This document shows positions 35,701 to 64,000 of a stretch of DNA of 64,000 nt, piece after piece (position 1 is the stretch's first letter; the number at the start of each line of letters is the position of its first letter). Under the pieces are notes generated by a model. It saw nothing but the letters and a program-made list of their open reading frames with translations, was not told the DNA's origin and did not search any database. The position numbers and the translations under genes are program-made. The DNA is from Eledone cirrhosa (Eukaryota). The stretch lies in NCBI GenBank assembly GCA_964016885.1, contig OZ024740.1, positions 312,046,001 to 312,110,000 of the forward strand. Reading direction: 5' to 3'.

Positions 35701-38700
35701 TGAAATGAAGCGTATTGCTCAAGAACACAGCATACCACCTGACCCAGAGATCGAACCCACAACCTTATGATTGTGATTCCAATGCCCTAAACACTAGGCC
35801 ATGTGCCTTCATTTTATGGATAACGTGCAATCAATAAGTTGAGATGAGTAGAGACTTGTGGTGGTGGCAATAACAGAAGAGAAAAGGCTCAGCAAGTTGT
35901 TTGTGTATATAGACTTACCTATCTATAAGCCAGATGGCTTCTGTACAAAATATAGGAATAGGAGAACTCTCTTACATGCAACATACAGTTTATATTGTGC
36001 AATTGTTGGTTGGCAGATCTTTTTAAATTTACTAAATATTACATTTGTACTTAAAAGCATGTAGTTTTGATGGGCATGGTGATAAACTGAAAATTGATGT
36101 TACATCAAAGAATAACTGAAAAATTTATTTTGTTGTTTCAGTGAATCAGTACCACAGAAAATGCCTGCATCAAAACCAGTCATAATATTTTGTTTCAATG
36201 GTAAGTTATTTTGATTTAAATTTATATCTAAAAAAAATTATTTCATAGTAAATTTTGTTGTGTACAACTACAAGATGCAGGGGTTAACTTTGCAAGCATC
36301 ATGACAAACTTCTCCATTTACCCTATCATCTGCACCACCCTTCACCAACCTCTTAATTTCATTTCTTCTTTCATCATCTTTAACCATATCATATTTGGTT
36401 TCCCCACTTCCTCTACTTCCTTCCATATTCATTTTCATTACTCTTCTCATCCAGTCACTTTCATCCTACCTCAACTCATGACCCAACCATCTCATTTTAT
36501 TTTTTTTTAACACTGGTTCTATTTCCATCATCCTCTGCAATTCATTGTTTGTCTTTCTCTTTCCCAGTAATATTCCACTCCTCCACCAGACCATTGTCAT
36601 TTCCATTCTTTCTAGCCTTCTTTGTTTGACTCCCATAAAATTGTGGCACTTCTCACACATACAACATACACCTTTCCCTTCAGTTTTAGTGACACTCTCC
36701 TCATTAGCACACCACTCAGTTCCTGAAACTTCTTCCATACAAATTTCACTCTAGATATTGTCACAGAGTTTTATCCACCCTCTCAATTCAACACATCTCC
36801 AAGCTAACAAAATGCTTTCACACCTTCCATCTTCATATCATTCCCAAGATTCAGCTCAGCATCCTCTCCATCTGGAGTTCCCTCCATACACACTTTACAC
36901 TTACATGTTGTTGCCACATTATTTAATAATTCCTTCACACCATGTTTTCGGTTCCTTCCACCTATTTATCTTCTCCCTCAGTTCATCCATACCCTCTGCT
37001 TTTAACACCAGGTCATTTGAGTACAGCAACTACCATGATAAACCTTTCTTTACATTTCCGACCAGTTTCTCCACCATAAATACAAATAGTAGTGGGGTTA
37101 ATACTGACTCCTGATACCCTCCAACATTCACTTCAAACTCATCACTGTTCCTGTTCTTATGATTGTACAATCTCTCTCATACATTGCCGTCACTACTCTA
37201 ACCAATCATTCCTCCACTTCAAACTCTCTCAATGCTCATGTCACTACTTCATGTGGAACCTTATCAAAAGCTTTCTTCAGATCAACAAACTCAAAAAGCA
37301 AATTCTTCCTCTTGTCCCTGTACTATCTCAAAATAGAAATTGTATCAATCATTCTTTTTCTCAACAAACATCCTAACTGCATTTCATCAGATTTAACTTT
37401 TTCTTTATGCTCTTTGCAATACCTTCATTCCATTTTTTTTATAATTTAAATGCTCTATAAGAACCAGAGTTTAAAGGATTGGGTTTTTTTCCCGCTGTAC
37501 TGGGAGATAAAAGTATTCAACTTGCTCAGCTATTCCCTCTGCTAGTTTGAGAACTGGATTGCTTGCAGTGTTGCTATCCCATTCATTCTCCACATTCAAA
37601 ATTCTCTCAATCTTTCCTTAAGTTTACAACAATTCATCCTTCAAGCGCATCTTTCTCTCCCTAACTGCCTTACAATTTTCAACACATGTCTCTAACCTTG
37701 TTCTAAATCCATTCTCTAAACAATCTTCTATGTACTTCTTCTACCCTTGCCACTTTACTATCCTCTTGATTGCTTTGTACTTCTGATGAGCTGCTTCCTT
37801 CATTATCAGTTCCCTCGCTCTCTGCCATTCTCTGAATCTTCCTCTTTTCTTATCAATCCTCTTTTCAACTTCATTATCCCACCACTATGTTTCTAAGTCT
37901 CCATCCACACACATCACCAACAGCTCCTAAGAAACCATCTTTCAGAAACTTCCAAGCACTCTCAAGTTTATTTCATCATACTCAGCTTCTCTCGTACAAC
38001 TTCGCTCCCTCACTGTTACTTCTTTTAACTTCTACAATTTTAGTCATGGTTGATATATACTCAGCTGAACTCTCCTCCCACCTTTCACCCTCATGTCACA
38101 GACAACTAGATGGAGTTGTATAACAACCTCATGTTCTGGGATTACCTTTGTTTCGTTAACATTCCTCCAACCTTGCCCACGTACCATTGATTAGTTAACA
38201 GTTGCCTAATCTACTCAATGCATACATAATGAGTTTGTTGTCTTCTTTCTGGAATTAGGTGTTACAACTTGACATGTCAACTCCATCAGCAAACTCCAAA
38301 ATCCTATCACCCTCTTTATTCTTGATACCATACCCATAACCCTCATGATCTCACACAAAACTATCCATACTGTATCCTATATGTCCATTCAATTCCTCTC
38401 CTACCGTGATAACTTCCTCATCTTTCATGTTTTCAATCTTTATTGCACACCAAAACTTGTCTTTCTCTTATGGGTGTTTAGCAAGGAGACCCACTCGACC
38501 TGCTCCTCTTTGCGCTGGCCATCATTGACATTGCTTGCTCTTCAACGTCTGGAACATGGACAATGTGACCCTGGATAGCTTGACCGAGTTGGTAGTTGAG
38601 GACCTTTGACTAATCATCCTAGCTCTAAACTCCTTGGACTTGAGATCAACCCTTCCAAGTCCGAGGTGATAAACAAGCTACGGTGAGGCCAAATTCCACA

Positions 38701-41700
38701 ACACCGTAGTCAGCATCCCATCTTGCTCAGGGCTCAACTAATGCTCAAAGATGCCATCTGGATTCTCAGCCCTCCAATTCTCTCGAAAGCCATACGAGAG
38801 TGCCTGGAGACTAAGCATGCAGACCTGTCGAGGATGACAGAGAGGTTGTGTCTCATTGACATGCACCCGCTGTTCTTTCTCCTGAGGAACTGCTTCGCCC
38901 TTTCTAAATTCTTCTTTATGCTATGCAGTGTGTCTTGTTACCCTTTTGCAGATCTCCTTGGTGAACTCGATGCCACCATCTGATGCTGTGCAATACAGCA
39001 CTGGAATGAAAGTAGCCTGTCTGAGGAAAGAGCCCTTTGAGGTGGAGTGGTTGTTGCAGCAGGTGTCACTGACCATGGTCTGCGACAATACCTTTGCCTT
39101 TTGTCTGAGGAGCGCAGTCGAAACACCACTCTGACTTAGATGTAGTCTGTCATCCTCTCCCCTTCCTCCTTTCTTCCGTTGCTTAACAATCCTAGCCCTT
39201 TCCCTACTTTTCCTCTCTTTTATTGTTTCATGTATTCTAAATACTTGTTTATAATGAATACTGACAACAAATATATTTAGCTATAATGTGTATGAATAAC
39301 AGGCTGCAATCTCTCTCTCACACTATCTGATTATCTCTCTTTCTCTCTCTCTCTCTCTCTCTCCATAGATATAACGTACTTATATGTCCTATTGCACTCA
39401 CTTCTAACATCTCAAAGGTGATGATCGACAGCCATTAATGTTCTCTATTACTTTGAATCACTCTCTCTCGTTAATGACCATCAGTATGGCTTTCATATAC
39501 CCAGATCTCGTGGAGATCTACTCTCCTATGTCATTCTGCAATAGGTTCTCATCTTTAAGAAATGTTGTTGCCCTGAACATCAGCAAAGCTTTTTGCCATA
39601 TGAGGCATGCAGATCTTGTGATAAAATTGCCCACTTATGGTCTTCATCTGCCTGTGTCAGATCACACCATTGTGACATGTGCTGATGGAGCTTACTCAGA
39701 CTCAAACTCTCAATTCTGAAGATACATCAGAGTTGATAATTTTGTGACCTATACTCACATCAACGACCTACTTGCCATCATCTCCAATAACATCAACTCT
39801 TACTCAGATGATACCATCTTTCATTCTTTTCAAAGATTCACCCAAAAGCCAGTTAAATACTTTGTACCAAATCTGCAGTGACTCTGAGAACAGTGACCTC
39901 AAAAACATCCTCAATGAAGTCATGCCAATCTTGTCTTCTTCAATGTGTAATGACACAATAATTACATATATCAAGAAAATATTGTCACACCTCACCCCCG
40001 TATTGAATATGAATATCACGGAACTAGAATCCTCAAGGCCATTACAAATACAAGAACTCATGGTCACTGAGGATCTCTCCTGTCAAAGCACATCTTCAGC
40101 ATAGACAAAACTGCATCACAAAAACTAGCTTTCTTCAGAGGCAGAAAATACTTGTCCCCAACAACTGCTAACTCTATACAAAGCTCAAGTGGAACGAACA
40201 ATAGTGTTGCTATCACGTCTTAGATGGTTTTCTATGTATAGACATCCTAGAATATATCCATAGAAAGGCCACTTGATTGCCATGATGTTTGTTCACTAAC
40301 ACTACACCCTCTTGCCTATAAGCATGCAGTCTTACCTCCTTCCTGTTTTACCACTACTTCAATGGCCTTTGCTTCTCAGAGTTGGTTAGTTTTATACCAT
40401 CTCCATTCAAGCATTTCCAACTCATTTCCATCCTCTTGTCACACAATTTCTTCCACCTGCAAGACACTGCACTAACCACAATGTTTAATTCTTTCTCCTC
40501 ACAGTGTTGATTCTATGGAATTTGTTCCTTGCAAGTTTTTTTGTTTTGTTTTTTTGCAGTTGTATAATATGTTATGTGAATCACTAATGGATTATTCATC
40601 AGGAACATTAAACATGACAATCTTACCACTCTCAGAAAGCCTGTGAAGCCCAAACCAATAGAAAAATTCAAATTGAAGCCACTGTAATTGCTTCCCTTTT
40701 CTGTAATCTGTTATAGATTGTGATGGTTCAGTATTATACTTTCCTGTACCACCTGAAAAACTAAGGAAATAACTAGCGTAGATTATATAATGACATTCTG
40801 TTAATGTTAGTATATTAAAACAAACACTCCTTCCTTATATCTGGTTTTAGTAGACTAGTGGTTATTGCCATAATACTCTGGGGATCATCATCATCATCAT
40901 CATTTAACGTCTATCTTCCACGCTAGCATGGGTTTAGACGGGAATTGTCCCACTTGAGGCAAGATTGGTTGTCTCGCTCGTATGGGACTGTCTGGCAGGT
41001 TTTCTACGGCTGGATGCCCTTCCTAACACCAACCACGTTTACAGTGTGGACTGGGAGGTTTTTACTGTGTTAGCTACACGGCCACATTACAGTATGGACT
41101 GTGTGTTTTTTTGTTGTGACAACCTCATTTATTTAGGACTGGATGTATATATATAACAGACCATGGTTATTACTATGGAATATTCCTCAGCCTCTAATGC
41201 TACTGTGTCCTACAAGCTGTTGTCTTTCAGGGAGATGGAGTCATGGTGTTGCCATATCAATGTATGTCTTCATCAGCCTATGATGAGGAGGCATCACATC
41301 TTTGAAGGGAAGGAGGAAGAGGTACACAAAAGGTGGTCATATTAGTGTGTTGATAGGTTGCTACTGTTTACATTACTCGACTATCTTATCCTGTGTTATT
41401 CAAAGCTGTCTTCAACATCAATACAATGCAGTATCAGTGACTGATTATAATCCACAGGTTTTTTAATGGGTTACCTATTATCCTGTTAGTTCTGCCATGT
41501 GTAGCTCTCAATAGTATGTTATGGTTTAAGGTTGGTAACAGATAGCTAACAGTTCTTGGTTCAGCTATATAGTATTGTATATAAATTACTAATGATAAAT
41601 AACTATGTTGTTATTTAGCACCTAATCACTCTTAATTCAGCAGACATGATATTCCTGCTTTTGTTATTTTTATTAGAGAGCATTGGAGAGAACCATTTTC

Positions 41701-44700
41701 AAATTCAATCTACAATTTAATTGTTGTTGCTGTTGTTTATCTCCAATCAGCCCTGATCAAAACACTCCAGTTGTGACTATCCTACCCCCTTTTTTTTTTT
41801 ACAGACATTATATATCAAGGTTTTCATTATCCAGTACCTCTTTCATTTTTTAAGGTGGTAGCGTGCAGTTTTAGTAGGATTTGGCTGCTATTTCTAACAA
41901 GTTAAGCGACAGCATAGCAGCTCCCTTGTTGGTTCAGTAATAACTTATGTTGTAGCTGTATGTTGCTGCTGTTTCATAAACTGTAATGTTCTCAAATCTT
42001 TCTTCTTTCAACCTATTACAGTACCTGGCCGAGGTCATACGAGTACAGGTGACATGGAATCTATGAAACCTTTGATGCAAATGATATTTCACTGTATTGA
42101 CAAAGTCAGTCGGATGCAACTTAGTAAAGATGTAAGTTTTATTAATTTTATTTCCATTGTTTCCATCTGTTGTCTCATAAAAATAATATTTGTTATATCA
42201 TCATCATTTTTATGTCAGCTTTTCCATGCTTACTTGGGTTCAACAAGGTCTTTTTCAACACACCATCTCTCTACTTGTTGCATTCCTTTGTCATCTCTGA
42301 GTTTCAGTGATTTGAGATCAGCTCTCACCAACTCCACTCGGGTCTTTCTCTATTATGGCGTCCTTCCACTGGGATTTCTTGGCACTTCTTCACCCAGCGA
42401 TCATCATTCATGTGCATTACATGTCCATACTAATGCAGTCTTTTCTCTTGCACATTAATTCTGATTCCTCTTAAACCCAGTTTTTCTCTCAGTTCATCCA
42501 ATCTCTGTTGTTCTCTTACATTTACATTGCACATCCACTGAAGCATGCTTGCTTCATTTTTCTCCAATCTACACAATCTCTGCAATCACAGCCCATATTT
42601 CACTACCATGCAGCATTGTACTTCGCACACAGGTGACATACGGCTGTCCTTTTGTTTGTAGGGAGAAACCTTTTGTTGTCAACTGGGGAAGTAGCACCCT
42701 AAACACCTTCCCTCCTATCCTTATTTAGCTACTATGCTCTCAGAACACCCTCTTTCACTGCTAACTAGATAGCAGAATCTATCAACCATTTCTATGGATC
42801 CTTCATGTGATCGAAAACGGATTATATCTCTGCCCTGCTTACTATCTATTACATATGAAGTCATTCTTTCTTGTTAGTCTGCCTGCTATCCTACTACACC
42901 TCTTCTGCACAAAAGATTTGCATTGTGTACATCATTTACAGTTTCTGCATATCAAACAGGGTCACTTCCTTGATGAGATCAGGGTCCTGTCTTCCTTCCT
43001 ACTTACTAGCACTTTAATTTTCACTATATTTGCATTCAACCATTTTGATTCTAAATTGTTTCCACAGTCAAAACTTATTCTCTAGATTCAGCTATAAGAA
43101 CCAGATAAGTCTATCTAGTGTCTTTCCTTAAATCAATGTATATAACCATAAGCCACCATAATTGGCCAGTCTAGCAGATAATCATGCTCAAGAATATTGC
43201 TTGAACAGATAGTTTTTTTTTCTGTTTTAATCTTAATTTTATACTGTAAAAACAATAAAGAAGTCAGAAAATGCTTGGCAGCAACCACTGAAGTGGAAAA
43301 ATCTAAACTGCTCTTTAAAATGTTATGCTTTTAATGGAGTAAATTGTAGCATGCAATGAAGTAGGGCTATTTGTTTATTTCACATATCAGACACACTTTA
43401 GTTTATTTTCAATCCTATTTTCTATGACACATCTCTCACTAACATTTCAGTTCTAGTGACATACTTATATACTTTTAGATTTATGGCATATTTATTTTCT
43501 ACTTCATCAGAATCATGTCAAAGATTGCTATTATCTTTATTAAATTACTTCATGTATATTAGAAAATTGTTTAAATAGTTACTGTTTATTTACTCACTGT
43601 GTACAGGCTCGTCAGAAGGCTGAAAGGAACCGACAAAAAGCTGAAGAAGCATTTCTAAAAGCTGCTCATGCTCAGCGTCAGGAAGCAGCACAACAAAGAA
43701 GAGAAGAAAAACGAAGAGCAGAGAAAGAAAAGATGATGAATGAAGATGATCCTGATAAAACTCGGAAGTGGGAGGTGAGTGATATGTGCTTTGAAGAAAG
43801 CATAAAGCAAAAACTTGTAGCATTATAAACAATTTATAGCCAGTGGTGTAAGTTTAACAAGTCTACAGCAATGGAATTTATGGATTCACTATATTAAAAT
43901 TGAGAAAAAGCCAAATAATCTGAAATCATAATCCTTCAGTTATTTATTAACTCTCTCTCACATTTAAACATTAAAGCAGGATTATTTTATACACACATAA
44001 ATTATTAATTGATTTTTCTTGGTATCTTAAGTGTAAATTTGAAAATATTTGTTTCACAAAATAATACTGTTATCTCCTTAAAGCATCCAACATGTTTCTC
44101 TTCTTATTTATCTTGACTTTGCTATCTGTTTTGTATCATAGGAACGAGAAAATAAAAGAGATTTGAAAAAGAAACAACCAAAAATGAAGGTATGTAAACT
44201 ATCCCTTATTTCTGTTTGTTGTCTCACTGTCTCTTCCTCCTATCATTTATACTCTACGCCACCTCCCAGACCCAGCTTTCAGCATATTGGCCAATAATTC
44301 TCAGAACTATAATTTTTACAGCTATTAATAACTGACATTTTTATGACACCAATTCTGCCAGTTTCACATGACCTGTGAAAGTTATGGACACTCCCTTTCC
44401 TCTTTGACTTCATCATCATCATACGTCCGCTTTTCCCTGCTTGCAAGGGTGGGATGGGTCCTATTCAGCACAGAATCTCTCCACTTGTCACGGTCCTTCG
44501 TCATCTCCACCGTGAGCATCACCGATCTGAGGTCTGCTCTCACCACCTCCACCCATGTTTTTTGTGGTCTTCCTCTACTACGTATTCCTTCAACTGTTAT
44601 TTTTTAAAAAACTCTAACACAATGTTGTAGTAGGTCAAATGCTTCATTGAGCTGAAGATAACTTCAGTTATGTTATCAATTATTCAGATTATATATTAAT

Positions 44701-46019
44701 TACTTCGTAAAATAACCATATGGATGTCTATGACATCTGTCAACACACACATTTCTAGGTATTACACATGTATAAATACATAGACATCTTTGCAGTACAC
44801 TGCCAACAGTAGTGTGGAACACATATTTGCTATGTGGATAGCTATTGTTCTACCAGCTCATGGATTCTAAGTTCTTGTCTCTTTCACTTGTTTCAATGGC
44901 ATCTATTTATGTAGACAACTCACACCCTGTTTCAGTAGTTATAAGTGGGTGATAACTAAACACTGGTTATATTGTGTATTGCAACTTATAAAAACCTATG
45001 ATAGTTAGTTGGGTTTTTTTTTAATCATTACATATTGAATATCTATTTAAGATGAAATACTGAATTTACTACTTATGGACTTGTTTAATTTATTCGTTGT
45101 GGGTCTTCTACATCATTATCATCATCATCAGACCAAGGATCTGATCTCTGGCTCTGGCCTGGACACTCACCAGATATCGGGCAGGGACCCATGTGCTGTT
45201 TGGGAGTTGCTCTATGTGGGTGCACAAGAGATGCAGTAGTGCAGTGGTATAACCGACGAATTAGTGTACGCGGACGACTTAAAATGCAAGAGTTGCTTGT
45301 TGGTGAGGACAAGCTGGAAGTGGTGGCATCTTTCTGCTACCTGGGTGACATGTGGTTAGCTGGAGGTGGAGCTGAGCTTGCTGCCATCGCGCGGTGCAGC
45401 TCCACATGGAACGAGTTTAGGCAGCTTCTCCCAATCTTTGAGACACTGGCTGCCATTAGTCACCAGGGGGCAGATTTACAATGCCTGTGTGAGAAGTGTG
45501 TTGCTCCATGCCAGCGAGACCTGGGCCCGTCATCCAACTGTCTGAATTGGCTCAAAAGAAATGACAAAGCTATGATCTGCTGGATGTGTGGTGTGACCAC
45601 TGAGGATGATATCGGCTCAACTGAGCTCCTGAAAAGACTGCTGATCACCGACCTTGAGGATGTGCTTCACACAAGATGAATGCGCTGGTATGGCCATGTC
45701 GAGCGCAGTGAAGGTTGGATCAGAAAAGTGATGAATGCCGATCCAGGAAGACTAAAAAGGTCTTGGATAGAGGATGTCTGTCGAGATCAAGCTAAGCTTG
45801 GCCTGGCCCAAGTGAGATCAGCAGACAGAAACATATGGAGTAGGACACTAAGGAGCGCTGTCAGGCAGGACCCACCCCACTTAGGGATTGTGTCCTGCAT
45901 AATCAAAAACTGGATGATGATGATGATTCCTGCTAATAATAATTCCATATAATTCAATCAAATGCTGTTTGTTTCATATATTTATCTATTTTTCTTTACA
46001 GCGGATGACACTTTCTTGA
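26224..46019 (+). CDS. CCDC47: CCDC47 (PAT complex subunit / calumin), complete spliced CDS, 486 aa
   Basis: Thirteen GT-AG exons total 1461 nt in one frame: 26224-26356, 27805-27956, 29095-29214, 30231-30405, 33107-33291, 33794-33895, 35026-35133, 35394-35476, 36142-36200, 42022-42131, 43607-43774, 44142-44189, 46002-46019. The protein has a signal peptide, an acidic EDNEFAEFE lumenal region, a TM segment (WDSFYMEMLMLGGLCAYFLNFLAGK.KN..LAQAW), WCSGR...GMLVELKFIKRQDL, HFSD.YSG and a basic coiled-coil C-terminus (QRQEAAQQRREEKRRAEKEK...KQPKMK). Confidence 0.95.
27805..27956 (+). CDS. CCDC47: CCDC47 coding exon 2 (acidic, polyQ)
   Basis: DPLDSNSNQDQETYLRSESKQSSEDQQQQQQQKWSQYPDNTAEDDDATVE; phase fits the flanking exons. 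Confidence 0.85.
28004..28183. mobile_element. Tc1/pogo-type MITE
   Basis: Inverted termini cagtgaaattctgttacaacgaa / ttcgttataacagaatgttatctg in TA-rich flanks. Confidence 0.6.
29095..29214 (+). CDS. CCDC47: CCDC47 coding exon 3
   Basis: TEDDENAYLNDDEEFEGFDDRGNYGKGKQHEASPGLTIPN. Confidence 0.9.
30231..30405 (+). CDS. CCDC47: CCDC47 coding exon 4 (TM helix)
   Basis: IPYHLHTNWDSFYMEMLMLGGLCAYFLNFLAGKSKNHKLAQAWLNGHKELLYSNFFIVG. Confidence 0.93.
30523..31770 (-). mobile_element. CR1-clade LINE fragment, antisense in a CCDC47 intron
   Basis: Minus-strand ORF pieces VIPLFKKGDRTSPVNYHPVS...; YLDFAKAFDSVPH; KYADDIKLYLEIKRTDPE...; NTRGHA; frameshifted; same family as the 5033 copy. Confidence 0.9.
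33107..33291 (+). CDS. CCDC47: CCDC47 coding exon 5
   Basis: DDGATKDAQSGMLLKESENVYVLWCSGRVYVEGMLVELKFIKRQDLVNTIARALKPSSDQI. Confidence 0.93.
33445..33745 (+). mobile_element. Single monomer of the hammerhead-bearing repeat
   Basis: Homologous to 18252-18510 plus 18135-18220; hammerhead-like motif at 33537-33579. Confidence 0.75.
33537..33579 (+). ncRNA. Minimal type-I hammerhead ribozyme-like motif (core point variant)
   Basis: Stem I ACAGTC/GGCTGT; core C(A)GATGA (intact CTGATGA in the 18343 copy); stem II GGGT-aatc-ACCC; GAAA; palindromic stem III region AACATGTT; GUU cleavage triplet. Confidence 0.6.
33794..33895 (+). CDS. CCDC47: CCDC47 coding exon 6
   Basis: VVTIDMEPNTMDKFVCCIAQKKVCAKLHRDMYDL. 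Confidence 0.9.
35026..35133 (+). CDS. CCDC47: CCDC47 coding exon 7
   Basis: SQFCTEKKSAEKFDLPSSYQILSEIGEATSAVIDKR. Confidence 0.9.
35394..35476 (+). CDS. CCDC47: CCDC47 coding exon 8
   Basis: VHHILTKYEGLVEYIHFSDMYSGPKNQ. Confidence 0.9.
36142..36200 (+). CDS. CCDC47: CCDC47 coding exon 9
   Basis: ESVPQKMPASKPVIIFCFN; phase 2 in, phase 1 out. Confidence 0.88.
36265..38470 (-). mobile_element. RTE-like LINE, degenerate (APE endonuclease to RT C-terminus)
   Basis: Minus-strand remnants GYGYG..N.EG..ILEFA, KVIPEHEVV.QLHLVVCDM, VDLKKAFD, GVHQ.SVL.PLLF, MRWLGH, MEGSRG; many stops. Confidence 0.75.
38480..39135 (+). mobile_element. CRE-like non-LTR retrotransposon RT fragment
   Basis: LNVW..D..TL, LGLEINPSKSEV and RL..ID.H..FFLLRNCFAL.K....L remnants. 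Confidence 0.6.
39400..40540 (+). mobile_element. Degenerate CR1/L2-group LINE RT fragment
   Basis: VVALNISKAF, KLPTYG, INDL, YSDD and LLTLYKAQV remnants. Confidence 0.6.
42022..42131 (+). CDS. CCDC47: CCDC47 coding exon 10
   Basis: PGRGHTSTGDMESMKPLMQMIFHCIDKVSRMQLSKD. Confidence 0.9.
42200..43110 (-). mobile_element. RTE-like LINE 3' fragment
   Basis: Minus-strand remnants LLPQLTTKGFSL, CVRSTMLHGSEIWAV, RLH*YGHV; (GAT)n-type tail. Confidence 0.65.
43607..43774 (+). CDS. CCDC47: CCDC47 coding exon 11 (coiled coil)
   Basis: ARQKAERNRQKAEEAFLKAAHAQRQEAAQQRREEKRRAEKEKMMNEDDPDKTRKWE. Confidence 0.93.
44142..44189 (+). CDS. CCDC47: CCDC47 coding exon 12
   Basis: ERENKRDLKKKQPKMK; donor GTATGT. 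Confidence 0.88.
45120..45927 (+). mobile_element. RTE-like LINE 3' fragment
   Basis: LEVVASFCYLGDM...AR...W..FRQLLP, RNDKAMICWMCGV, RWYGHVERS.GWI; (GAT)n tail. Confidence 0.8.
46002..46019 (+). CDS. CCDC47: CCDC47 terminal coding exon
   Basis: Strong polypyrimidine acceptor tttttctttacag|CGG ATG ACA CTT TCT TGA (RMTLS*), then an AT-rich 3' UTR with AATAAA near 46874 and 46894. Confidence 0.75.
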   Translation, partial: RMTLS

Positions 46020-47481
46020 AACATTTCAATTCTCATCTGGAAAATGGAAAACATTATGGACAATTTCCACTTCTTCGAAATTAATTTTCTGCATTCACTA
46101 AATTATAGCCAACTATTCAGAGTGAATTTAAAAAATGCCATATGTTTTTATTTTGTTTATTTTTTGACTCAAAATCTTTTCCAAATTCTTATTAAAAATT
46201 AAAAAAAAAAGAAAGAAAACAATTGAAAAAAAATAACAAGAAAAGAAGCTTGATTTTCCACTAATATTTATCTATTTAATTCCTTAAGAAGAACAACAAA
46301 AATATTAAATTAAATTTTACAAACATTCCCCTCTTCCCAATCAAGCCAATTATCCCAGTTTTGAAATTTTTGTATATGTAATACAATAAGAAATGTTTAC
46401 CTTTTCTGCATTTGTTTTATATATAATGTTCTGTGTGTGTGTTTATTAGTTAAATATCTACATTATTGTTGGAGGGTATCTGACATCAAACTCTCTCCTT
46501 AAGATTGCAAAGATAAACAACTTGGTTATTCGAAAATGTTCTAATCTTTCTAAACATTCAACTGCATTCATTAAGTTACAGTAGTAACAAGAGTGGGGAG
46601 AATTTACCAAGTAAACTATTTTTACCTTATATGGTGGGACAATAGGTAGAAAACAATGCAGTAGTAGTTTGTATTCCCAAGGTGAGTTATTGCTTTGATA
46701 ACATAAGATTAATAATGCCCCTGTAAAATGTTATCTTTTAGTGTATGTGTTTGCCATGAAACAATATTTCCTCAATAGACAGATAATAATCTGTAGAAAA
46801 TATGAAAAATCAAAGAGGCAGAAACATATGTTAACTGAAACTAATATGAGCTTATAATTCCTGAAATATCAGTAATAAAGTTGTTTAAATAGAAATAAAA
46901 GTTAAAAGTGTAAACACTGTAGAGTAGGGATGACTCTAGTCACAGTGAGTAGATGATAACCTCTCTTCTGTTGGTACTGTGATAAATTATACTATGTAGA
47001 CTCTGTAAGAGTTAATGCTGGTGCCATGATAAAATGCATCTGTAGATAGAATGTAAGAGCAGGACGTCCTCCAGCCAGTCATCTTGGATCCTTACAAACT
47101 ATCAATCCCATGCCAGCATAGAAAATAGATGTAATATGATGATACACACATATATATCTATATACATACAGAAGCAAATATACTGTCAAGTTGTAGTGGT
47201 GATAATTATATTTATAGGATAGGATAAAGATCCCATAACTCCTTGTGGAGTCAGAGGCACCGTCATATGGCGTGCCTAGGGTACTTTTATACCTAGTGGA
47301 GCTCAACCCTAACCAGACAACAGCCATTTTTTTTTTTTGTGCGTCTATTGAGGAAGAATCGCCTCCGAAAGGATAAAAGGGAAAGTTGACCTCGGCAGGC
47401 TTTGAACTCAAAGCGCTCAATGAGGTGGGACGAATACTGTCAAGCATTCTATCCAACATCTTAACGACTGTCAATTTGCTG

Positions 47482-49879: not shown

Positions 49880-52800
49880 TATAAGGCCCCTTATAGCTGT
49901 GATAATGATAAAGTCAATTTTTACAGATAGTCATCAAATTTCACCTATCAATAATTAGTTAATCAACTCAACACAGAAATGTACCCCAAAACAAGTACTG
50001 CCACCAAGACTAATTCTATACTAACAGCATAGAACCCTTTAGCATATACATTACTCTACATATACTATTATATTTTCATAGTAAACACTTTCTCACATAA
50101 TATCGAATCTGAGATTTTGATATTTATTTTGAGAACAATAACTTAACATAAATATGAGTAGCCAGTTTGAACAGAAGAGGTGAGAGAATTCTGGCCAGAT
50201 ACGGCCGGTTTAAGTGCTAAATGGATCTTGAATTACTAAAATATTTATAAAACTTCCTTCTTACAGAATTTTGTACTGATGCAATTCTGGGTACACCTTT
50301 TTTTGAAATTATAGTTATGGATTAGAGCCTTTTTAAATTTGGAGTCTTACTCAATTGAGACATGGAGATTTGATTAGGTTTTTTTCACTCCAAACTTAAA
50401 TACATTGGAAGATTAAAGTTTTGACTTTTTGACAAATATCACCAAACCAAACAATTCACCATAGTGTGTGCTGATTTTAGCTTTAACTGGTGACTCCAAT
50501 AAGAAAAGGGTCTTTATAGATTTTTCTTAAAATATCAACCATTTGATGCTTATACATGATCCCATCAAAACATATCCAAATATAAATAAGATATTCACCT
50601 GATTTTCTCAACTATTATTTGGAGTGATTGACCCATTATTATGACCAGTTGCATTGGGATTCACATTTCAAATATAGCAAAATTGATATATTAGGATATC
50701 TTTTGAAGCAGCTGGGATGGAAGCTGTGTTGTACGAATTTACTTGGATTCAGATGTCCACTATAAATGGTGGAAAAGTGTTCCAATGAGTCATCAATAAA
50801 AGTATGTGGATGGTTGTTTTACTTTGTGGTGAATCAAAGGATAACTCATCTGACCCATTTTTGAATCTCCTGTCTTGTATTTGATTTATATATTTTGATT
50901 ATGTTGGCTATATTACATTACATGTTGGATTGATCATTAACTGTTGACTAACTGATGGTATTGTAGATAAGATATGAGGAACTGTTGTGATACAAAGTGA
51001 ATCATAAAGGAAAAGGAGGTTGTGACACAGCTTCATCTAGTTGTCTAATCGGAGGGTGAAAAATGGGAAGAAAACTTAGTGGAGGTTAAGATATAAAAAG
51101 CAAAATGAAATACACTGCCCATGTGTAGTATTTATTTCTAAAATTTGAAGAATTTAATGGAACAACTAATCCTTTGATCATTAGGCTGTTGTTTGAAACA
51201 TAACTTAAGAATTTCTTATATTAATTAAAACCTTCCACCATAATTTCATTTTAAAATGAGCAGTTGTATACCATAAAAATGACAGTTTTGGGTGTGTTGG
51301 TATCAAAAGTGTTAATGATTTTCCTGTACTTTAAAATAGCCTGTTCATGTAGGATGAACAACAGGTCTGGTCCATGACTCGAATATCAATATTAATACAA
51401 TGAAAGTGGTAATCACAAGTAAAAAACAAGAACAAAGATAAAGATTTGGTTTTATTCAAAACAGAAGAGAAATTTTCCTCTTGGAGTCAATTACTCAAAG
51501 AATTTTAGTTTTCTTTCTTGAAGAAAATTGTTTTGCATATTAGACATCGCACACATCAATCAGTCTCTTAATGAACTTGTTATAGCTAGTGCATGTCAAT
51601 AAGAACGATAGCAGCAGCAATGATGACAGCAACTGAATTGAAAACAATGTGACCACAATTTATATATTGCTTCATTTAAAGTCACCGCTGTCTGAACTGC
51701 AGGCTTTTAACGTCAGTGGTAGTAGCAAATTTCAGTTGTTTGATAATTTTAATACACAGACATGCTATTTGAATTATTAGATAAGTTTCCCCCCATTGTT
51801 ATAACTAAAGGACTAATTCAAGATACCCCAGCCACTGCCAACACAATATACAATACAAGAGAATTTGAATGATCAAATATGCTAATATAATATTTGTCTT
51901 AAACACTTTACTACAGTCATCATCAGTAGGATTGTTATAGAAATTGAACTATTTAACAAACACACATCTATTATCATTAAGAGAGACAGCTGTATAGCCA
52001 TTTGGTCAACACTGACAGCGTAGTGGAGATTTTTGACAGGAAATAATCTACTATAAATTAATACAGATGCATACATACAAACACATACACACATTCATCT
52101 GTTGTGTTGAACCTCTGTCAGTTCTGACAAGTGTTCCAGTTGATTCGATCATGAAAGTATTGCAGAAGTGGTTGAGCATTCCACAGACACATGTAGCCTT
52201 AACATAGTTCTCAGGGAGATTCCGTATGACACTGTGTAACAAGAATGGCTCTTGAATTACAGGTACAACTCATTTTTGTCAACTGAGAGGAGTAGAGCAA
52301 TGAGAAATGAAGCTGAACACCCTAACCACTAAGCTATGCATCTTCAAACATACATACTGTGTAAATTATAAATACGGCAGCAACAACTTGAATTATTTTA
52401 ATTATTCATCTTACAAATATTATTGCTATGACTGGTAATGTGTAATTTGTGAATGAAAGACATTTTGTTTCATTTTTTTTTTTATACTACATAGAAGAGT
52501 GGGATAGGGGGCTTGCATCGATTAAAAAACAAACAATAAATCAATTTCACTTGATTTCCTTAACATACATATATATACATACACATACACACATATATAT
52601 ATATATATATACATACATACATACAAACACACACATATATATGTATATATATATACATACATACACACACACATATATATATAACAAAACAAAAGCTCTT
52701 AATAGTATGTTTAAAAAAAAGAATAGGAAGCAAACAAAGAATTCCAAAACAATTTACAAAGCCAAAAAAAAAAAAAAACACTATTTTTATAAACAACCGC

Positions 52801-54837
52801 GGAATTGTGATTTCATAACCAGAAAGATATACAATTTATATTTACAGGAAAAGCAAGTCTCTGGGATGACAATTTCTTTTAAAATGTTCATTGAGAGTAT
52901 CAAAAGTGCTCCCATTAGATATATTTGGATTTGTGTTAGACACATGTATAATAAATCTCTAAAAAGTATTTTAAAATATGTATTTTCATAGAATTTCTTT
53001 CAGAAAAAGAAACAAAACAAAGAATAACCACTCCTCGACATAAGAAGAGTATCAAAGGGAATGGAAAATATATTGCTGGAGTAAGATGGTGTAGATAGTT
53101 TAGCTCTAATAGTTGTAATCACACACACTAGTTATTGCAACAAGAATAATGTTCAAATTTGTTCAAATACAATAACAAAGAACACCTAGCTTAAATTGAG
53201 TCAATTCATTCTCTTAGGTATTAAGAATATCACACATGCACACATACATACATTTTCACAAACGTTAGGGTAAGGAACATGATTTGAAAAGAAGAGATAT
53301 ATTTTAAATACTGTTTTTGTGAAGCATACACACACATACATATATAATACATTCCAGTTCAAACTGTTGAAAAATAATATGCTTGTATTTTTGCCTTCAT
53401 ATACATAATGAAATACATATGCACATATAAGTGTGTTTGTATATATGTGAATTATTTCTTGAAGCAAGATGCACTAAAACTTGAATGTAGAACAGAAAAA
53501 GAGATCCACAATCTGCATTGAAACAGTCTCAATTAAGAAATAAACATAATCAATTTCAATTTATATAGATATTTAACTGCTTATAGCAGAGAACATTCCA
53601 TCTTCATAATCAACAGTCTGTTGCTTCATCCTTTGAAGAAAAAAAAAAAAAAAGGTTGTCTCTACCAAATGCTATTTGTGATAGTTTCAGTTTGTCAAAA
53701 TATATTTTTCTGTAAAGAATATCTTTAGAAGTTGTGTTACCCCAAAGCTTGGTGCTGAGAACCTGAATATACTAAAGGTACATAAAATGAAATTATAAAG
53801 GTTGATTAATGCATGTTAACAAGATAGAAATAACTGTTCATAAACAGTACCTGTCTAACAATAAAAATTTAAGACCCAAGTTCTTGTAAGTTTAAGCAAG
53901 CAAATCCCCTTGGATAGAATACTCTCCTATGACAGTTAACTGTCATACCTCTTCCTGGCAGCGTAGTGAAATAGGAAATCAGTGGGATGTGAAAACAAGT
54001 ATCTTGTTTGTTCAGAGACACAAGAAAACATCTGCAATAGCTTTGGACTCACAATGGACCAACAAAAAAATTACCCAGAAACTTAAAATAAAATATTATA
54101 AACCTTTTTTTACTTCTCAAAGGGGAAGCATGAAATTATAAATGAAAATGGATTCTAGTTCCATTATGCAAATTCAAAGAGAAAAACAGTAACTAACCCT
54201 CTAGTATATATGTGTATTGTTCATAGCATTTTACTCATTATCTCTCGTCTTTTTATAAACAGTAAGGATTCTATATATTTATTTTTTGTCAAAAATGAAC
54301 ATTATTTCATTCACACCTATCTTCCACAAAATCCTGAAACATTTGGTGGCACTATTTTAAAACTTAGTTCTTTCACCTTTACAAATGTAGATAGATAAAG
54401 TGGAATACCAGCTTATATGCTGGCATGTAGGATGAAACATTACTCCATAGCAAATTTCCATTTGAACAATATGGTTAGGAAATATGATCAGAAAATTAAG
54501 AGGAAGGAAGTGGGGGAAGAGGAAGGTAACAAATAAAATAACAAAATGTTGGTTTTAGGCCCAAACTAGAAAGTAAGGAAGGGAGAAGGAGCAGACATGC
54601 ATAGAAACATGTGTGTGTGCAAACACACAGCCTCGTACGTAGATTTTCTCAAACAAAATCCAACATAAGCTATCAACGGTATAAAGTAGATTGATGCTGG
54701 AGTCGTAGAATCCTCAGCAGTAGCACCATCCATCCATCCATCCGTGATATCACAAGGAAGAGAACAGAGAAACTGTAGAAGATGGAGATGCTTTGGAGCT
54801 GAGATATTGCATGTTGTAAACGAGACCATGGGAGCAT

Positions 54838-56847
54838 TCATCGCACCACAGAAATTGGAGGAGGGGGTGGAGGTGGTGGTGCACGGCGACTTCCAGCTGA
54901 AAAATATAAAATGTAAACTACAATCAGAAGAATACTTAGGAATTGGTAAATATCTGAAAATCTAATGGCCAGGTACAAAAAGCCGTGAAAATAACATCAA
55001 TTACTAAAAAAATGTCAATTGGGGGGTTAATAAAATAAACAGCTTGATTACTTTGCTTTCTACGAGAAAACATGGTTAATAAAATTTAACCAAGAAGAGT
55101 GTAAAGTTTTGATAAACACAAGAAAAGGCTAATCATTAGAGAATACTATCTACACATACAACACAGAGCATGTGTTCAAGAAATGAACACGTTATGTGTT
55201 GACCTCTCTTCTAAACCAAATTGGAAGCCCCACATCAACAAAATCCTCAAATAGACATAATGACTGTAAGGCTTTGTCTAAGGAAGAAACTTAGTGTTGA
55301 TGATTAAACCAAACCTGATTATCTAAACTATGCATCTGTAGTTTGGGATAAAATTGGGAAAGATAATGTTGTATTTTGGAAAAATCTGGAACAGATCAAA
55401 AATAACTTAGCATTCTTTCTCATTGGCAGCAAAGGAGAAAATGCATGAACACATGTAGGCACACACAGAATTAGAAATCTGAGGCTTAAACCATTGGTGG
55501 AGTGATCAGCACAGATAAATGTTCCATATATAATCATACAGTAAACCATAATTGTCAAGCATGATTGCTAAGAGTTAGTTAAAGGCTTGCAGTGCTGCAA
55601 TTCCAACCAATATTTAGTAGTTGGGGTTGTTTCCTTTCTTTCTGGAATAAACTGGCTATGATCAGATCTGAAGAGGAAGATGGCCAAAATTTGTGTTAGT
55701 TCTCCAGGTCACAGCCCAGTAGTTGTAATAGTCAAAATTGAAACACATAACCCTGTAGTCAGTATTTTGCTGTTAATCTTATGTAAATTTCTGAGATAAC
55801 TTTAGGAAGAGGAGGATGAGAAAAAAAGCTCTCTTCTGTCATGACTGACCATGAGGTTGCACCTGGAAAATCCCTCTCCGGGCAAGGTGTTTTGTGGAAG
55901 ACCAACAGTAGCCCATGCATGCTAATCTCCCCTCTCCTTGCCACAGTACACAATGTACTTCCCAGCCCATAAGTCAAACTCATGACTTTACGATTGTGAA
56001 CACAACCACCTAATAACTCAGGCATGCACCTTCACAAAAAATAACTTTATTTGATGGAATAATATGTAGATAAGATAAACTACTGCAACAAAAGCCATGT
56101 TTAGCTAAAAGTTTTTTGACTGTTTCTCTGATTTGTCTATAAGATCATTCAAACACATGAAGTGAGACCTCAAAACCAGAGTGGTGTAAATTATCAAGTT
56201 AGTGTTGATATTGCGGCCTCACAGACCCAGCATCCAAAGGAAGTCAAGCTACAGTGTGGCCTGAAATGGGAGCCTAAGAGGCATTCTCATTAAAGTGGTG
56301 CCAGATTATTTAAAAGTTGAATACGAAGATGATGTAAAATAATATGCCGTGGTAGATTAGCCCCAGGTCAGCCCTTTTGAGCAGAACTATGATCAAAGGC
56401 ATTCCAACTGTGACCACCCAGTCTTTTTTAATATCTATGAATGCATGTTCCATTGTGCCCTTCTTTTTTAAAAGATAGTAGAATGTGATTATGTGATTTG
56501 AAGATTTGGTTGCTATTTCTAGCCAGCCAAGCAGCCACACAAAGGTTCCTAATGAGACAAATATATAATAGTAATCAAGGTAAACTACTTTTCAGTGAAA
56601 TTTCACAATTACTACATTATTTAATGAAATTAAATTGTAGAAAAACATTACTCAAATTATAAAGAAAAAAATACACGAAATCAACTAATTTAACTATTCC
56701 CTCTGGCTACATGTAACAAAAGATCTGAATTGGTTGACTTACCAGCATTTCTTGCACCGCGACTGGGATATGTCTTTGCACACCCAGTAAAAGGCTCAGG
56801 AGTTGGAAATTCCAATATATTATGGAAATGGCAACGTTTCATAATAT
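54838..56847 (-). CDS. WASP-interacting protein family (WIP/WIPF/verprolin-like), last two coding exons; upstream exons are outside the window
   Basis: Exon 56847-56743 (acceptor ttttatag, donor GTAAGT) encodes (D)IMKRCHFHNILEFPTPEPFTGCAKTYPSRGARNA, matching the WIP WASP-binding domain pattern (F.FH....LP.PEP......K.YPS). Exon 54896-54838 encodes AGSRRAPPPPPPPPISVVR*. Phases match. Confidence 0.85.
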
Positions 56848-60765: not shown

Positions 60766-62015
60766 ACATATTTATTATTGAACCTCCATTTCTATTCGAT
60801 ATAGAAAATATGGGAAATGTTTAAACATATTTCATTGAGTTTTCTATCATTGCACACATTTGGTGACACATTTCAGTTAGATAAATGGGAGTGTTGTTAG
60901 TAATACAGAATATCATTATGAAAGTGTAAAACTGTCTTGTCTACAACATATAATCATTCCTAGTTAGCTATTTGACAATCCCTGCATTAAACATGTTAGC
61001 AATATTGTTTTTTTATGAGGATGGCATTCTGAGTTCTCTAAATAGCCAGTATGACTATGTGGTTAAAGAAACTACAGACGCCTATAGTATACACACATAT
61101 ATGAGGATGTGAGTGTCTGTGTTTATATTGTGTAACTTAACAGCTTGACAAAAAGAGATCGACAATATAGGTACTAGACTTGAAAAAGTATGTACACGAT
61201 TGCAGTCTAATGGTTGAAATCAGTAAATGAGTATTTTACTCTTTTACCTTGATTTAGTTGATCATATCGACTCCAGTGCTTATTTTTCAAGCCTGGTACT
61301 TAATGTATTGATCTTTTATTTGTTGAACAGCTAAGTTATAGGACATAAAGGCAGGCAGCCAGACAGGCACACACACACACACAATGGGCTTCTTCAATTT
61401 CCACCTACCAAAATTCCACTCGCAAGGCATTAATCAACCTCAAGCTATAGTATAAGAGACTTTCCCAACGTACTGCACAGCAGTACTAAACCCAGAACCA
61501 ACTGGTTGCAAAGCATACAAATTAACCACTCAGCTATACCTACACCTATATATATATATACATATATAATACACATTGACTAAATTGATTTATAATAATA
61601 TGAGAAGTCACAATACAGGCTCATATTACAAAGTAGAAAAAGTTAACTTACAATATAATAAACCAAATTACAGGAATATAATATATCAAAGAAAAAAACT
61701 ACAACTTACTGTGGGCTATTATTTTTTGTTTTTAAATTCCTATATGTATAGGAGTTAATCACAGCATTCCTAGTTAGTTTCAAACAACATTACAACTAAA
61801 TGTTTACACAGTTTAAATGAATTATAAGGAAAATATATAATTTAGAAAAGAGTATCAACTGGATTAGGTAACATCCAGATAAAATGGCTTTGTCATGAAA
61901 AATGAATAACAGCAGACTGTAAAGCCAAAATTATTTTTAGCAGCTCTCATTTCAATATGAAAAACAGATAAAGCTGGGATGAATAAAATTAGTTTTTTTT
62001 CGTGAAAGTTCTTCT

Positions 62016-63257
62016 TCATACAACAAAAAGGTTAAAATGTATTTCTCCAACATGAATTACATAGATTTTCCCCAGAGCTGGCTTTTGTTGGTAGCCTGGT
62101 AATGGTGTGTGATACTGAAACAGTGGGTCATGCTGTAGCCATTCTGTTGTGAAACCATATCTTGTGTTGACATAAATGGAACAACCAAGAAGGGTTGCCA
62201 TACCAAATATTTCAGCATGAGTTGCCCAAGTACTTTCTCTTTTCATTCTCCGAATATGTTTTGAGAAACTATAGTCAATATAAGCTTCAAATTTTTCTCT
62301 ATGGCTTTCCATAAAATCACATAATTTTGCTCGTAATTTGCTGTGAAATGTCTGCTGCCCTGTCAATTCTTGGCTGATGCAGCGAAAAAAACAATTGCCA
62401 TCACTCATTACAGAGTAAATTGTCCCAAAATAACCTCCTTTTAAAATGGGGTTATTATTAACATTAGCCCTGGCATCATGAGATAAGTCCAAAAACTGAC
62501 ATATCCTTTCTTTCCATTGATGATCAATATATTTGGGAATGTAGTCAAGAGGGGGTGGAGGTTGATAAGTGGCAAAATGATTGATGAGAGAAGGATAGCC
62601 ATAGGGATAAGGGCAGTAGCGGGTAGGTGATGGAGGATGTCGAGTGTGAGTAGGAGAAGGTGGAGCTGAGCAATTACTAAGATTTCCATTTGACAAAGAG
62701 TGTTGATTATTAAGTAAGGGAAATTGGTTAGTTGGGGGAGGAGAGAAGCTGGGAGGAGAATACTGGTTATAGGGAGGAGAGGAAAAATTAGAAGGGGGAC
62801 ATTGGTTATAGGGGGGAGGAGATAAGGTAGTAGGAGAACATTGGTTAAAAGGGGGAGAGGAGAAGTTTGGAGGGGAACATTGGTTATAGGGGGGAGGGGA
62901 TAAGGTGGTAGGGGGTGGAGAGAAGCTGAGGGATTGATAATAGCTGGGAGGTGGTGCTGAGTGGGCCCTGGTATCTGGTTGTTGGGCATTAGTTGGGTAT
63001 ACAGTGTATGGAGGTGGGAACTGGGTAGCAGCGGATGAATATATAGCATTAACAGAACTGTTAGAGTTAGTATTTGGGGTATTTGTAGATGTTGTACAGC
63101 AGTTATTTGAGGTAGCTGGTGATGGTAACAAAGATGGAACATTGCCATTAGGAGTACAATTATAAGGCACAGGCTGGTACCAGTGGTTAACTGGATAGTT
63201 ATAGCAACTATTAGCAAGGTTGCTATATGAGTGAGAAAATTGAGGATTATTATTCAT
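62016..63257 (-). CDS. Intronless Pro/Ser/Tyr-rich protein with PPxY repeats and a C-terminal OTU-family deubiquitinase domain (413 aa)
   Basis: Uninterrupted ORF with OTU Cys loop MSDGNCFFRCIS (Cys codon 62391-62393), H..LR, WATHAEI..MA.LL...I.V and His loop IHFN (His codon 62037-62039). The N-terminal half has 13-aa repeats (SPPPYNQCSPPNF). A splice acceptor at 63280 is in frame with the ATG. Confidence 0.85.
   Translation of the reverse strand: MNNNPQFSHSYSNLANSCYNYPVNHWYQPVPYNCTPNGNVPSLLPSPATSNNCCTTSTNTPNTNSNSSVNAIYSSAATQFPPPYTVYPTNAQQPDTRAHSAPPPSYYQSLSFSPPPTTLSPPPYNQCSPPNFSSPPFNQCSPTTLSPPPYNQCPPSNFSSPPYNQYSPPSFSPPPTNQFPLLNNQHSLSNGNLSNCSAPPSPTHTRHPPSPTRYCPYPYGYPSLINHFATYQPPPPLDYIPKYIDHQWKERICQFLDLSHDARANVNNNPILKGGYFGTIYSVMSDGNCFFRCISQELTGQQTFHSKLRAKLCDFMESHREKFEAYIDYSFSKHIRRMKRESTWATHAEIFGMATLLGCSIYVNTRYGFTTEWLQHDPLFQYHTPLPGYQQKPALGKIYVIHVGEIHFNLFVV
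62722..62931 (-). repeat. 39-bp coding minisatellite (~5 units) inside the OTU ORF
   Basis: Repeating SPPPYNQC[SP]P.NF units; plus strand shows recurring acattggttatagggggg(a)gga. Confidence 0.85.
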
Positions 63258-64000
63258 TGGTACACACGGACTGAAACACTGAAATAGGAATCAATTTGGA
63301 CAAGCTACAGTCAAGTATTTTTTTTTCCTGCAGGCTACAAAAATAATTCCAAACTAAAGAAAAAAGTCAATATTTGAAGTGCAACAAAACGAAGTCACAA
63401 ATAACCAAATAAATGAATGTAAAATTAAATAAGCAAATAAGTTGCAGTAAAATAGGTATTTTTCCTCCACTTTTACGATTTTCATTTGTCAAATTTTGTA
63501 TGAAGTATATAAATGAAAAACACGTAGCTTAATAAAAATATGTTGATACATTTTTTAAAATCCAGTTTGAATGCGTTGGATGTTAAATAGTAGTTCCTAC
63601 CAACTGAAATTTTAGTTTTTGTATCCTCATAGAACAACAAATCATCAAATTGCTTCAGTTGTCACCAGTAATATTTTAACCCAGTGTCTGGCATTCCTCC
63701 TCCTATAATCCTAAATCTGTGGTTGAACATGCGCACAATTATTAGAGGAGAAAGATTTAAAGCAAGGCCTACTTATATATAGATTAACTAGATATGAGAT
63801 TATCCAGCTTACAGAAACCTTCAAAGTCTGCCAAAGCTAATATAGAGAAAATAACAACAGACAACAGCTGAACAAATGTGTATAGTAACAGTATCTTCTG
63901 CTGATGGACTTGGTAAGAAGTAATGCAGTTTGTGATGAAGTTACTAGTGAGAATATAGATAAAGCAATAAAATTTATACAGTCAGCAAACTTTAGAACAG

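Follow-up and report, generated by a model that had tools for sequence, protein, structure and literature searches.

An intact single-copy OTU gene within a WIPF intron of Eledone cirrhosa, predicted to encode a deubiquitinase of likely transposon origin

The reading frame and its WIPF host gene

The DNA analyzed is a stretch of 64,000 nucleotides from the genome of Eledone cirrhosa (contig OZ024740.1, 443 Mb long), which is referred to here as the window. Close to its end, on the minus strand, lies an intronless reading frame whose product we designate P0001 (Table 1). The frame is open over 424 codons, from 63290 to 62016, and encodes 413 residues from the ATG at 63257, as had been stated in the original prediction. 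The probability of a frame of this length, computed from base composition, is approximately 3e-9 per start, and the next-longest frame in the window is a 348-codon RT-like fragment (5001-6047). When the P0001 DNA was searched against its own genome (3.0 Gb) the one match was the gene itself, which is therefore single-copy, and the closest protein relatives in that genome are three distant ORFs with 32-41% identity. In another sample two alleles were observed, both within the tandem repeat, of which one is silent and the other is P168T.

The gene lies, on the same strand, between the Pro-rich and the WASP-binding exons of WIPF, nested in the approximately 18.5-kb intron that separates them. Nesting in a WIPF intron, with a length of more than 7 kb, had been proposed from the window alone, and flanking exons have now been found on both sides: the WASP-binding exon within the window and, about 11.3 kb past the window end, a 705-nt Pro-rich WIPF-like exon terminating in a phase-1 GTAAGT donor. 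Among 13 filtered candidates, none was convincing as a further WIPF exon lying between these two, and the WIPF WH2 exon was not found within 200 kb upstream. In the WASP-binding segment the sequence EFPTPEPF takes the place of DLPPPEPY of human WIPF1. A second host gene, which we take to resemble CCDC47, is represented by exon-like fragments at about 29020-46786 on the plus strand and lies tail to tail with WIPF; a contig of sequencing run X4 covers 46000-46786 of it.

Acceptor-like AG sites are present in the sequence just 5' of the ATG at 63280 and 63272, both of which had been named earlier as possible junctions. A WIPF-OTU fusion isoform made from the donor of the 705-nt exon is excluded because both acceptors run into stops, after 9 and 5 codons; the acceptors are in phase 0 and phase 2, against the phase-1 donor. 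From the sequence, the OTU gene likely has a transcript of its own, which would begin with a short non-coding 5' exon and would not contribute to the WIPF protein. Runs X1-X3 are genomic contigs from one sample. Run X4 appears to behave like RNA, judging from the contig that begins at the acceptor of the WIPF last exon. A 372-nt piece of X4 falls on the OTU ORF; similar short X4 pieces occur in non-exonic DNA, and their depth cannot rank genes.

Table 1. Features of the P0001 gene and of the WIPF exons found in the window
Feature	Position	Strand	Basis
Intronless ORF P0001, 413 aa and stop	62016..63257	(-)	ORF listing; MN(NN)PQ start shared with homologues
Pair of candidate splice acceptors immediately before the ATG	63271..63280	(-)	AG at 63280-63279 and 63272-63271; candidate only
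Two PPxY outside the repeat (PPPY 81, PPSY 103); same positions in P0002	62940..63017	(-)	motif scan
39-bp (13-codon) tandem repeat, 5.2 copies, 71% matches; PPPY only at residues 121 and 147	62713..62914	(-)	repeat search
Conserved tail block SAPPSPTH...PYGYP[SA]LINHF, residues 197-228	62574..62669	(-)	invariant positions in four homologues
Pre-OTU motif YIPKYIDHQWKERICQFLDL, residues 239-258	62484..62543	(-)	common to Helitron- and integrase-associated OTUs
OTU catalytic core, residues 279-413 (D286, C289, H407, N409; signatures W344-A-T346 and W373)	62019..62423	(-)	Pfam, AlphaFold2, Foldseek
First AATAAA 3' of the stop, candidate poly(A) signal	61315..61320	(-)	consensus match only
WIPF WASP-binding exon, phase 1-1	56743..56847	(-)	matches human WIPF1, E 2.2e-5
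WIPF last exon (AGSRRAPPPPPPPPISVVR, then stop) and 3' UTR	52796..54896	(-)	X4 contig starts exactly at its acceptor

The OTU domain and its homologues

The only Pfam domain over its cut-off in P0001 is OTU (PF02338), with 55.9 bits against a curated cut-off of 23.3 (E 7.9e-15). Both the domain and the full catalytic set had been recognized in the original prediction and are confirmed here, with D286-G-N-C289 at 62402-62391 and H407-F-N409 at 62039-62031. In an alignment of 57 rows, D286, C289, H407, and N409 line up with the catalytic residues of the other OTUs, and C289, H407, and N409 are invariant among four homologues. Residues 230-413 were modeled by AlphaFold2 from 80 sequences with a pLDDT of 89.3; a full-length model from 4 sequences (pLDDT 38) was set aside. 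Foldseek searches with the modeled domain gave OTUD5 (E 1.5e-8), OTUD1, and OTUD3 as the best matches. Viral folds were weaker than cellular ones (best E 1.6e-6), and a viral donor of the OTU domain finds no support in these model-based comparisons. A search of the ESM Atlas returned generic OTU clusters only. The Pfam scan revealed no ubiquitin-binding domain and no Tudor or glycosyltransferase domain in P0001, and the protein ends at V413, four residues after N409.

The modeled domain has the same small OTU fold and Cys-His-Asn/Asp arrangement as human OTUD1, OTUD3, and OTUD5 (PDB 4BOP, 4BOU, 3TMP), with TM scores of 0.60 over the query and 0.67-0.78 over the targets and a structural identity of 19-21%. 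P0001 differs from this subfamily in having no UIM, UBA, or ZnF, in an extra pre-OTU helix motif, and in W-A-T where the human proteins have W-[AG]-G. Cleavage by a Cys-His-Asn isopeptidase is established OTU chemistry, and C289 of P0001, activated by H407 and N409, is predicted to cleave the isopeptide bond after Gly76 of ubiquitin. Chain specificity is likely to be broad and targeting would likely come from the tail, since no ubiquitin-binding domain was found and OTUD1 without its UIM is reported to lose specificity (PMC3705208).

Three homologue clusters of P0001 were found among 25 candidates examined; they are unnamed and come from Logan and ENA only. Of 1.84 billion representatives, 2 match P0001 below 1e-30. 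Two sets of candidates for longer or shorter homologues gave none (0 of 65 and 0 of 3), and 600 pattern matches in metagenome contigs yielded no orthologue DNA. Identity to P0001 over the 135 residues of the OTU core is 119 for P0002, 99 for P0003, and 100 for P0004 (73-88%); over the 46 residues of the pre-OTU segment the values are 40, 31, and 30, and over the 110 residues of the N-terminus they are 79, 20, and 23, in the same order. The frames of P0001-P0006, which form four clusters, have no stops, the same MN(NN)PQ start, and all catalytic residues. Identity that is much higher in the core than in the N-terminus is the pattern that purifying selection would yield. P0001 is very likely a selected gene rather than debris, because a core identity of 73-88% and the same start are kept in three homologue clusters, which are known as proteins alone.

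The same comparisons bear on whether P0001 could be left over from a transposon or virus and unexpressed, or be a pseudo-enzyme, in either case without host function, which we consider most improbable. The transposon-type sequence marks described below and the very many Helitrons of this genome are points in favor of this reading. However, the gene is single-copy and has no mobile-element partner domains nearby, its frame and catalytic residues are intact in six sequences down to 73% core identity, and the domain is conserved far more than the tail.

Transposon-type marks and the origin of the domain

Beyond the two close homologues, scores fall to 100 bits or less (148 proteins). Among these next-best matches 15 carry TE-associated Pfam domains (Helitron_like_N, PIF1, DUF6570, Herpes_teg_N, integrase, hAT, RT, or endonuclease, in one protein below its cut-off), 3 are USP fusions, 2 contain SEC-C, which was counted as an OTUD3-like mark, and the rest are essentially OTU alone. 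For matches longer than 950 aa, TE-associated domains are found in 7 of 13. Three database matches from unrelated organisms (P0083, P0115, and P0137) have an OTU domain embedded within the catalytic domain of a USP (UCH).

Many of the next-best matches share the motif F/Y-x-P...W...C..L.L, about 45 residues before the catalytic Cys, which in P0001 has the form YIPKYIDHQWKERICQFLDL. An HMM of the pre-OTU segment from 13 TE-anchored domains, which were themselves matches of the P0001 query, gave P0001 11.3 bits, a score reached by none of 2000 shuffles, and OTUD3/5-like rows were below 0 or unscored. HMMs built from rows whose match began after the motif gave P0001 2.6 and 1.2 bits (reached by 3-5 and 11-13 of 2000 shuffles), and with the larger of these two training sets P0003 and P0004 scored 11.5 and 11.7 bits. 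Two columns, picked after viewing the alignment, further distinguish the groups: T346 is present in 17 of 19 TE rows against 0 of 15 OTUD3/5-like rows, and W373 in 19 of 19 against 5 of 15. Both residues are also common to a mollusc non-TE group.

Trees were calculated quickly from 154 rows and carefully from 57 chosen rows; the 'canonical' OTUD rows were labeled by eye and include no OTUD1, OTUD4, OTUD6, or ALG13, and there are no animal members of OTUD4, OTUD5, OTUD6, or ALG13 among the tree rows. In the 57-row core tree the P0001 clade emerges from a polytomy on a stem of 0.9, and most of the TE OTUs that bear the motif are set apart from it (98/93). Two groupings were put to AU tests, one with the motif clade (p 0.39) and one with the OTUD3/5-like clade (p 0.44), and neither was rejected. 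A transposon origin of the P0001 OTU domain appears likely from the sequence marks, and the core trees do not resolve it. The original interpretation holds in so far as the OTU gene is intact, conserved, single-copy, and intronless and lies within a WIPF intron, but it overlooked these marks of transposon-borne OTUs.

OTU domains have been described in Helitrons and Ginger1 (PMC9741609, PMC2836005), and the former describes transposon OTUs as untested for activity as of 2022. P0001 shares with the OTUs of Helitron/Helentron RepHel proteins and of Ginger1 the same minimal core, the pre-OTU motif, and the segments W-x-T-x-x-E and W-L-x-H-x-P-L-F. In contrast to them, it is single-copy and stands alone, with a Pro/Tyr tail but no Rep, helicase, or integrase, and is strongly conserved between genomes. 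A search of the window plus 200 kb with 17 TE-type or long proteins gave matches to the OTU ORF and to a single unrelated element at a distance of about 133 kb and to nothing else, so that no remnant of a Rep, helicase, or integrase was seen next to the gene; neither in this respect nor in copy number does P0001 have the form of an active or intact transposon. The many Helitrons of the genome (150 scored of 3704 candidates) are not a visible donor of the domain, because a search of the genome for the OTU family gave 7 matches only. Clusters of near-identical, regularly spaced Helitron Rep matches on contigs C20 and C27 suggest a recent or segmentally duplicated family.

Alternatively, the gene could derive from a host OTUD gene (OTUD1-like or mollusc 'OTUD3-like'), as a retrocopy or orthologue that evolves fast; it would then have no transposon ancestry but the same deubiquitinase function. 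OTUD1 is the best match of P0001 in the PDB by sequence (42.7 bits), the best folds are all of OTUD proteins, the AU test retains the OTUD3/5-like grouping, and an intronless, nested gene fits a retrocopy too. The OTUD1 match is not diagnostic, however, because a Helitron-type protein also matches OTUD1 first. None of the C-terminal UIM, UBA, and ZnF domains carried by OTUD1, OTUD2, and OTUD3 (PMC3705208) is present in P0001. The pre-OTU motif is present, W-A-T takes the place of the WAG of OTUD1, and no parent above 41% identity is found in its own genome. Such a host origin is, in our estimate, unlikely.

Individual assignments within the named families were also rejected. P0001 is not OTUD3, YOD1, ZRANB1, VCPIP1, or OTUD7, whose exons sit elsewhere (contigs C22, C15, C20, and C907); the OTUD3 exon was named by its likeness to 4BOU, and the others are presumed identities based on sequence features. 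Nor does P0001 have the C-terminal UIM that follows the OTU domain in OTUD1, as Pfam finds none and the chain ends at V413. The architecture had earlier not been recognized among the canonical OTUD1-7/OTUB/YOD1/ALG13 genes, and the searches run here gave no close relative among the named OTUD genes.

Domestication has been reported for deubiquitinases of the VTD class, for example, Drosophila ms(3)76Ca (PMC9741609). Like these, P0001 would be a lineage-restricted host deubiquitinase that is apparently transposon-derived. The class of enzyme differs, P0001 being an OTU, and germline expression was shown for the VTD proteins in that report, whereas P0001 is known from sequence. No description of the P0001 gene, or of any domesticated transposon OTU, was found in the open-access literature, supplements aside. 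We regard it as a real and apparently undescribed, lineage-restricted gene for a predicted deubiquitinase of known enzyme class, which likely arose by a known evolutionary route. The surprise is moderate, as there is nothing unusual in the chemistry and new genes are known to arise by domestication of transposons. A descendant that is conserved and stands alone would show that host deubiquitinases can be recruited from the transposon OTU class, in parallel with the reports on VTD. Octopod genomes would gain an apparently unannotated, lineage-restricted regulator of ubiquitin, and a compact enzyme of 180 residues is offered for testing the transposon OTU class.

The tail, candidate partners, and other OTU genes

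The tail that precedes the OTU domain contains 23% Pro and 8% Tyr, and PPxY-type motifs arise easily because of this composition; several motif types were tried. Four PPxY motifs are present in P0001 against 0.98 expected (p 0.010-0.017, shuffles). The original prediction described an array of such motifs amplified by a 39-bp tandem repeat. The repeat is real and two PPxY lie inside it, its five units ending in PPPY, SPPF, PPPY, SPPY, and PPPT, but the other two motifs, at residues 81 and 103, are outside. P0002 also has four PPxY motifs, and in these two proteins (p ~0.01-0.02 for each against shuffles) the motifs are kept although the repeat units differ. P0004 has a single PPxY, which is at chance level, and P0003, P0005, and P0006 have none; the tandem repeat is absent from the distant homologues. 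Multivalent docking on WW-domain ligases, which had been suggested as a possible role of the protein, is not sustained as its defining feature by this distribution of motifs and repeat. The array may be functional in the P0001/P0002 branch, yet it is not the part that the family conserves.

PPxY-WW and OTU-ubiquitin are textbook pairs, and the yeast deubiquitinase Ubp2 is a USP. P0001 could be a dedicated multivalent PPxY adaptor-deubiquitinase with the main task of binding the WW domains of NEDD4-family ligases or YAP and opposing their ubiquitination, and in this respect the retention of the four motifs in two proteins is suggestive, as is the finding that none of 56 other OTU matches having at least 150 residues upstream contains PPxY in the matching window. 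A precedent exists in the Ubp2-Rup1-Rsp5 system, in which Ubp2 is brought to a NEDD4-family WW ligase, Rsp5, via Rup1 (PMC4276913). The likeness is a functional analogy and is confined to the PPxY branch; Ubp2 relies on a separate adaptor and has no homology to P0001. With 0-1 motifs in the other homologues, no PPxY in 3 of the 5 repeat units, and a composition that makes such motifs easy, we judge a dedicated adaptor of this kind distinctly improbable.

Conservation of the tail is concentrated next to the domain. Invariant positions in four homologues amount to 29 of 43 in residues 198-240, compared with 23 of 197 in residues 1-197. The segment SAPPSPTH...PYGYPxLINHF, whose conservation is observed directly, would be the oldest candidate for docking, and this block is likely to be an ancestral docking or packing segment. 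The region 198-240 may pack on the OTU domain instead of docking; the confident model covers the chain from residue 230.

The interpretation that we favor, with moderate confidence, is that P0001, whose gene is intact, single-copy, and intronless and is nested in a WIPF intron, is a predicted active OTU deubiquitinase, likely domesticated from a transposon and likely selected, with a disordered Pro/Tyr tail that would dock on partners. The four PPxY motifs would add binding to the WW domains of NEDD4-type ligases in the P0001/P0002 branch only, probably as a later gain.

The conserved block includes YPxL, a motif of the kind that the V domain of ALIX binds (PMC4276913), and SAPP, which is near to PSAP; each of these short motifs is common in shuffles, and YPxL alone is reached by 14-21% of shuffles in three homologues. 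A loose match to the ALG-2 type-1 motif in four homologues was rejected, as 9-12% of shuffles also match the regular expression used, and the spacing deviates from PXYPXnYP with n=4 (PMC3397542). A far-reaching proposal, which we put forward as a speculation with little chance of being correct, is that cephalopods domesticated a transposon OTU protease and gave it a tail whose motifs resemble each of the three classes that recruit ESCRT/NEDD4, with YPxL and SAPP invariant and four PPxY in one branch. Such a protein would correspond, in a single animal chain, to Ubp2-Rup1 of yeast and would edit the ubiquitin of endosomal cargo or of NEDD4 ligases; if this were true, it would also be the first transposon-type OTU with a host function.

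Several other OTU genes were encountered in the genome. Two intact intronless ORFs with D-G-N-C...H-F-D, L002:1363-2112 (-) and L003:1276-1944 (+), are located about 8 kb apart on contig C10 and are divergent. They belong to a separate group (100/99) together with a named protein of Argonauta hians, a bivalve protein, and a hAT-OTU fusion, and possibly represent a second, older domestication. Proteins of at least 330 aa from this analysis had no matches in the surrounding 50 kb beyond the OTU ORFs. On contig C17, a divergent OTU-like ORF, L004:1408-1968 (+), reads D-G-N-S instead of D-G-N-C, lacks the catalytic His motif, and is a candidate pseudo-deubiquitinase. A YOD1/OTUD2-like gene is present on contig C15 as a single open frame (L028:1090-2061, plus strand).
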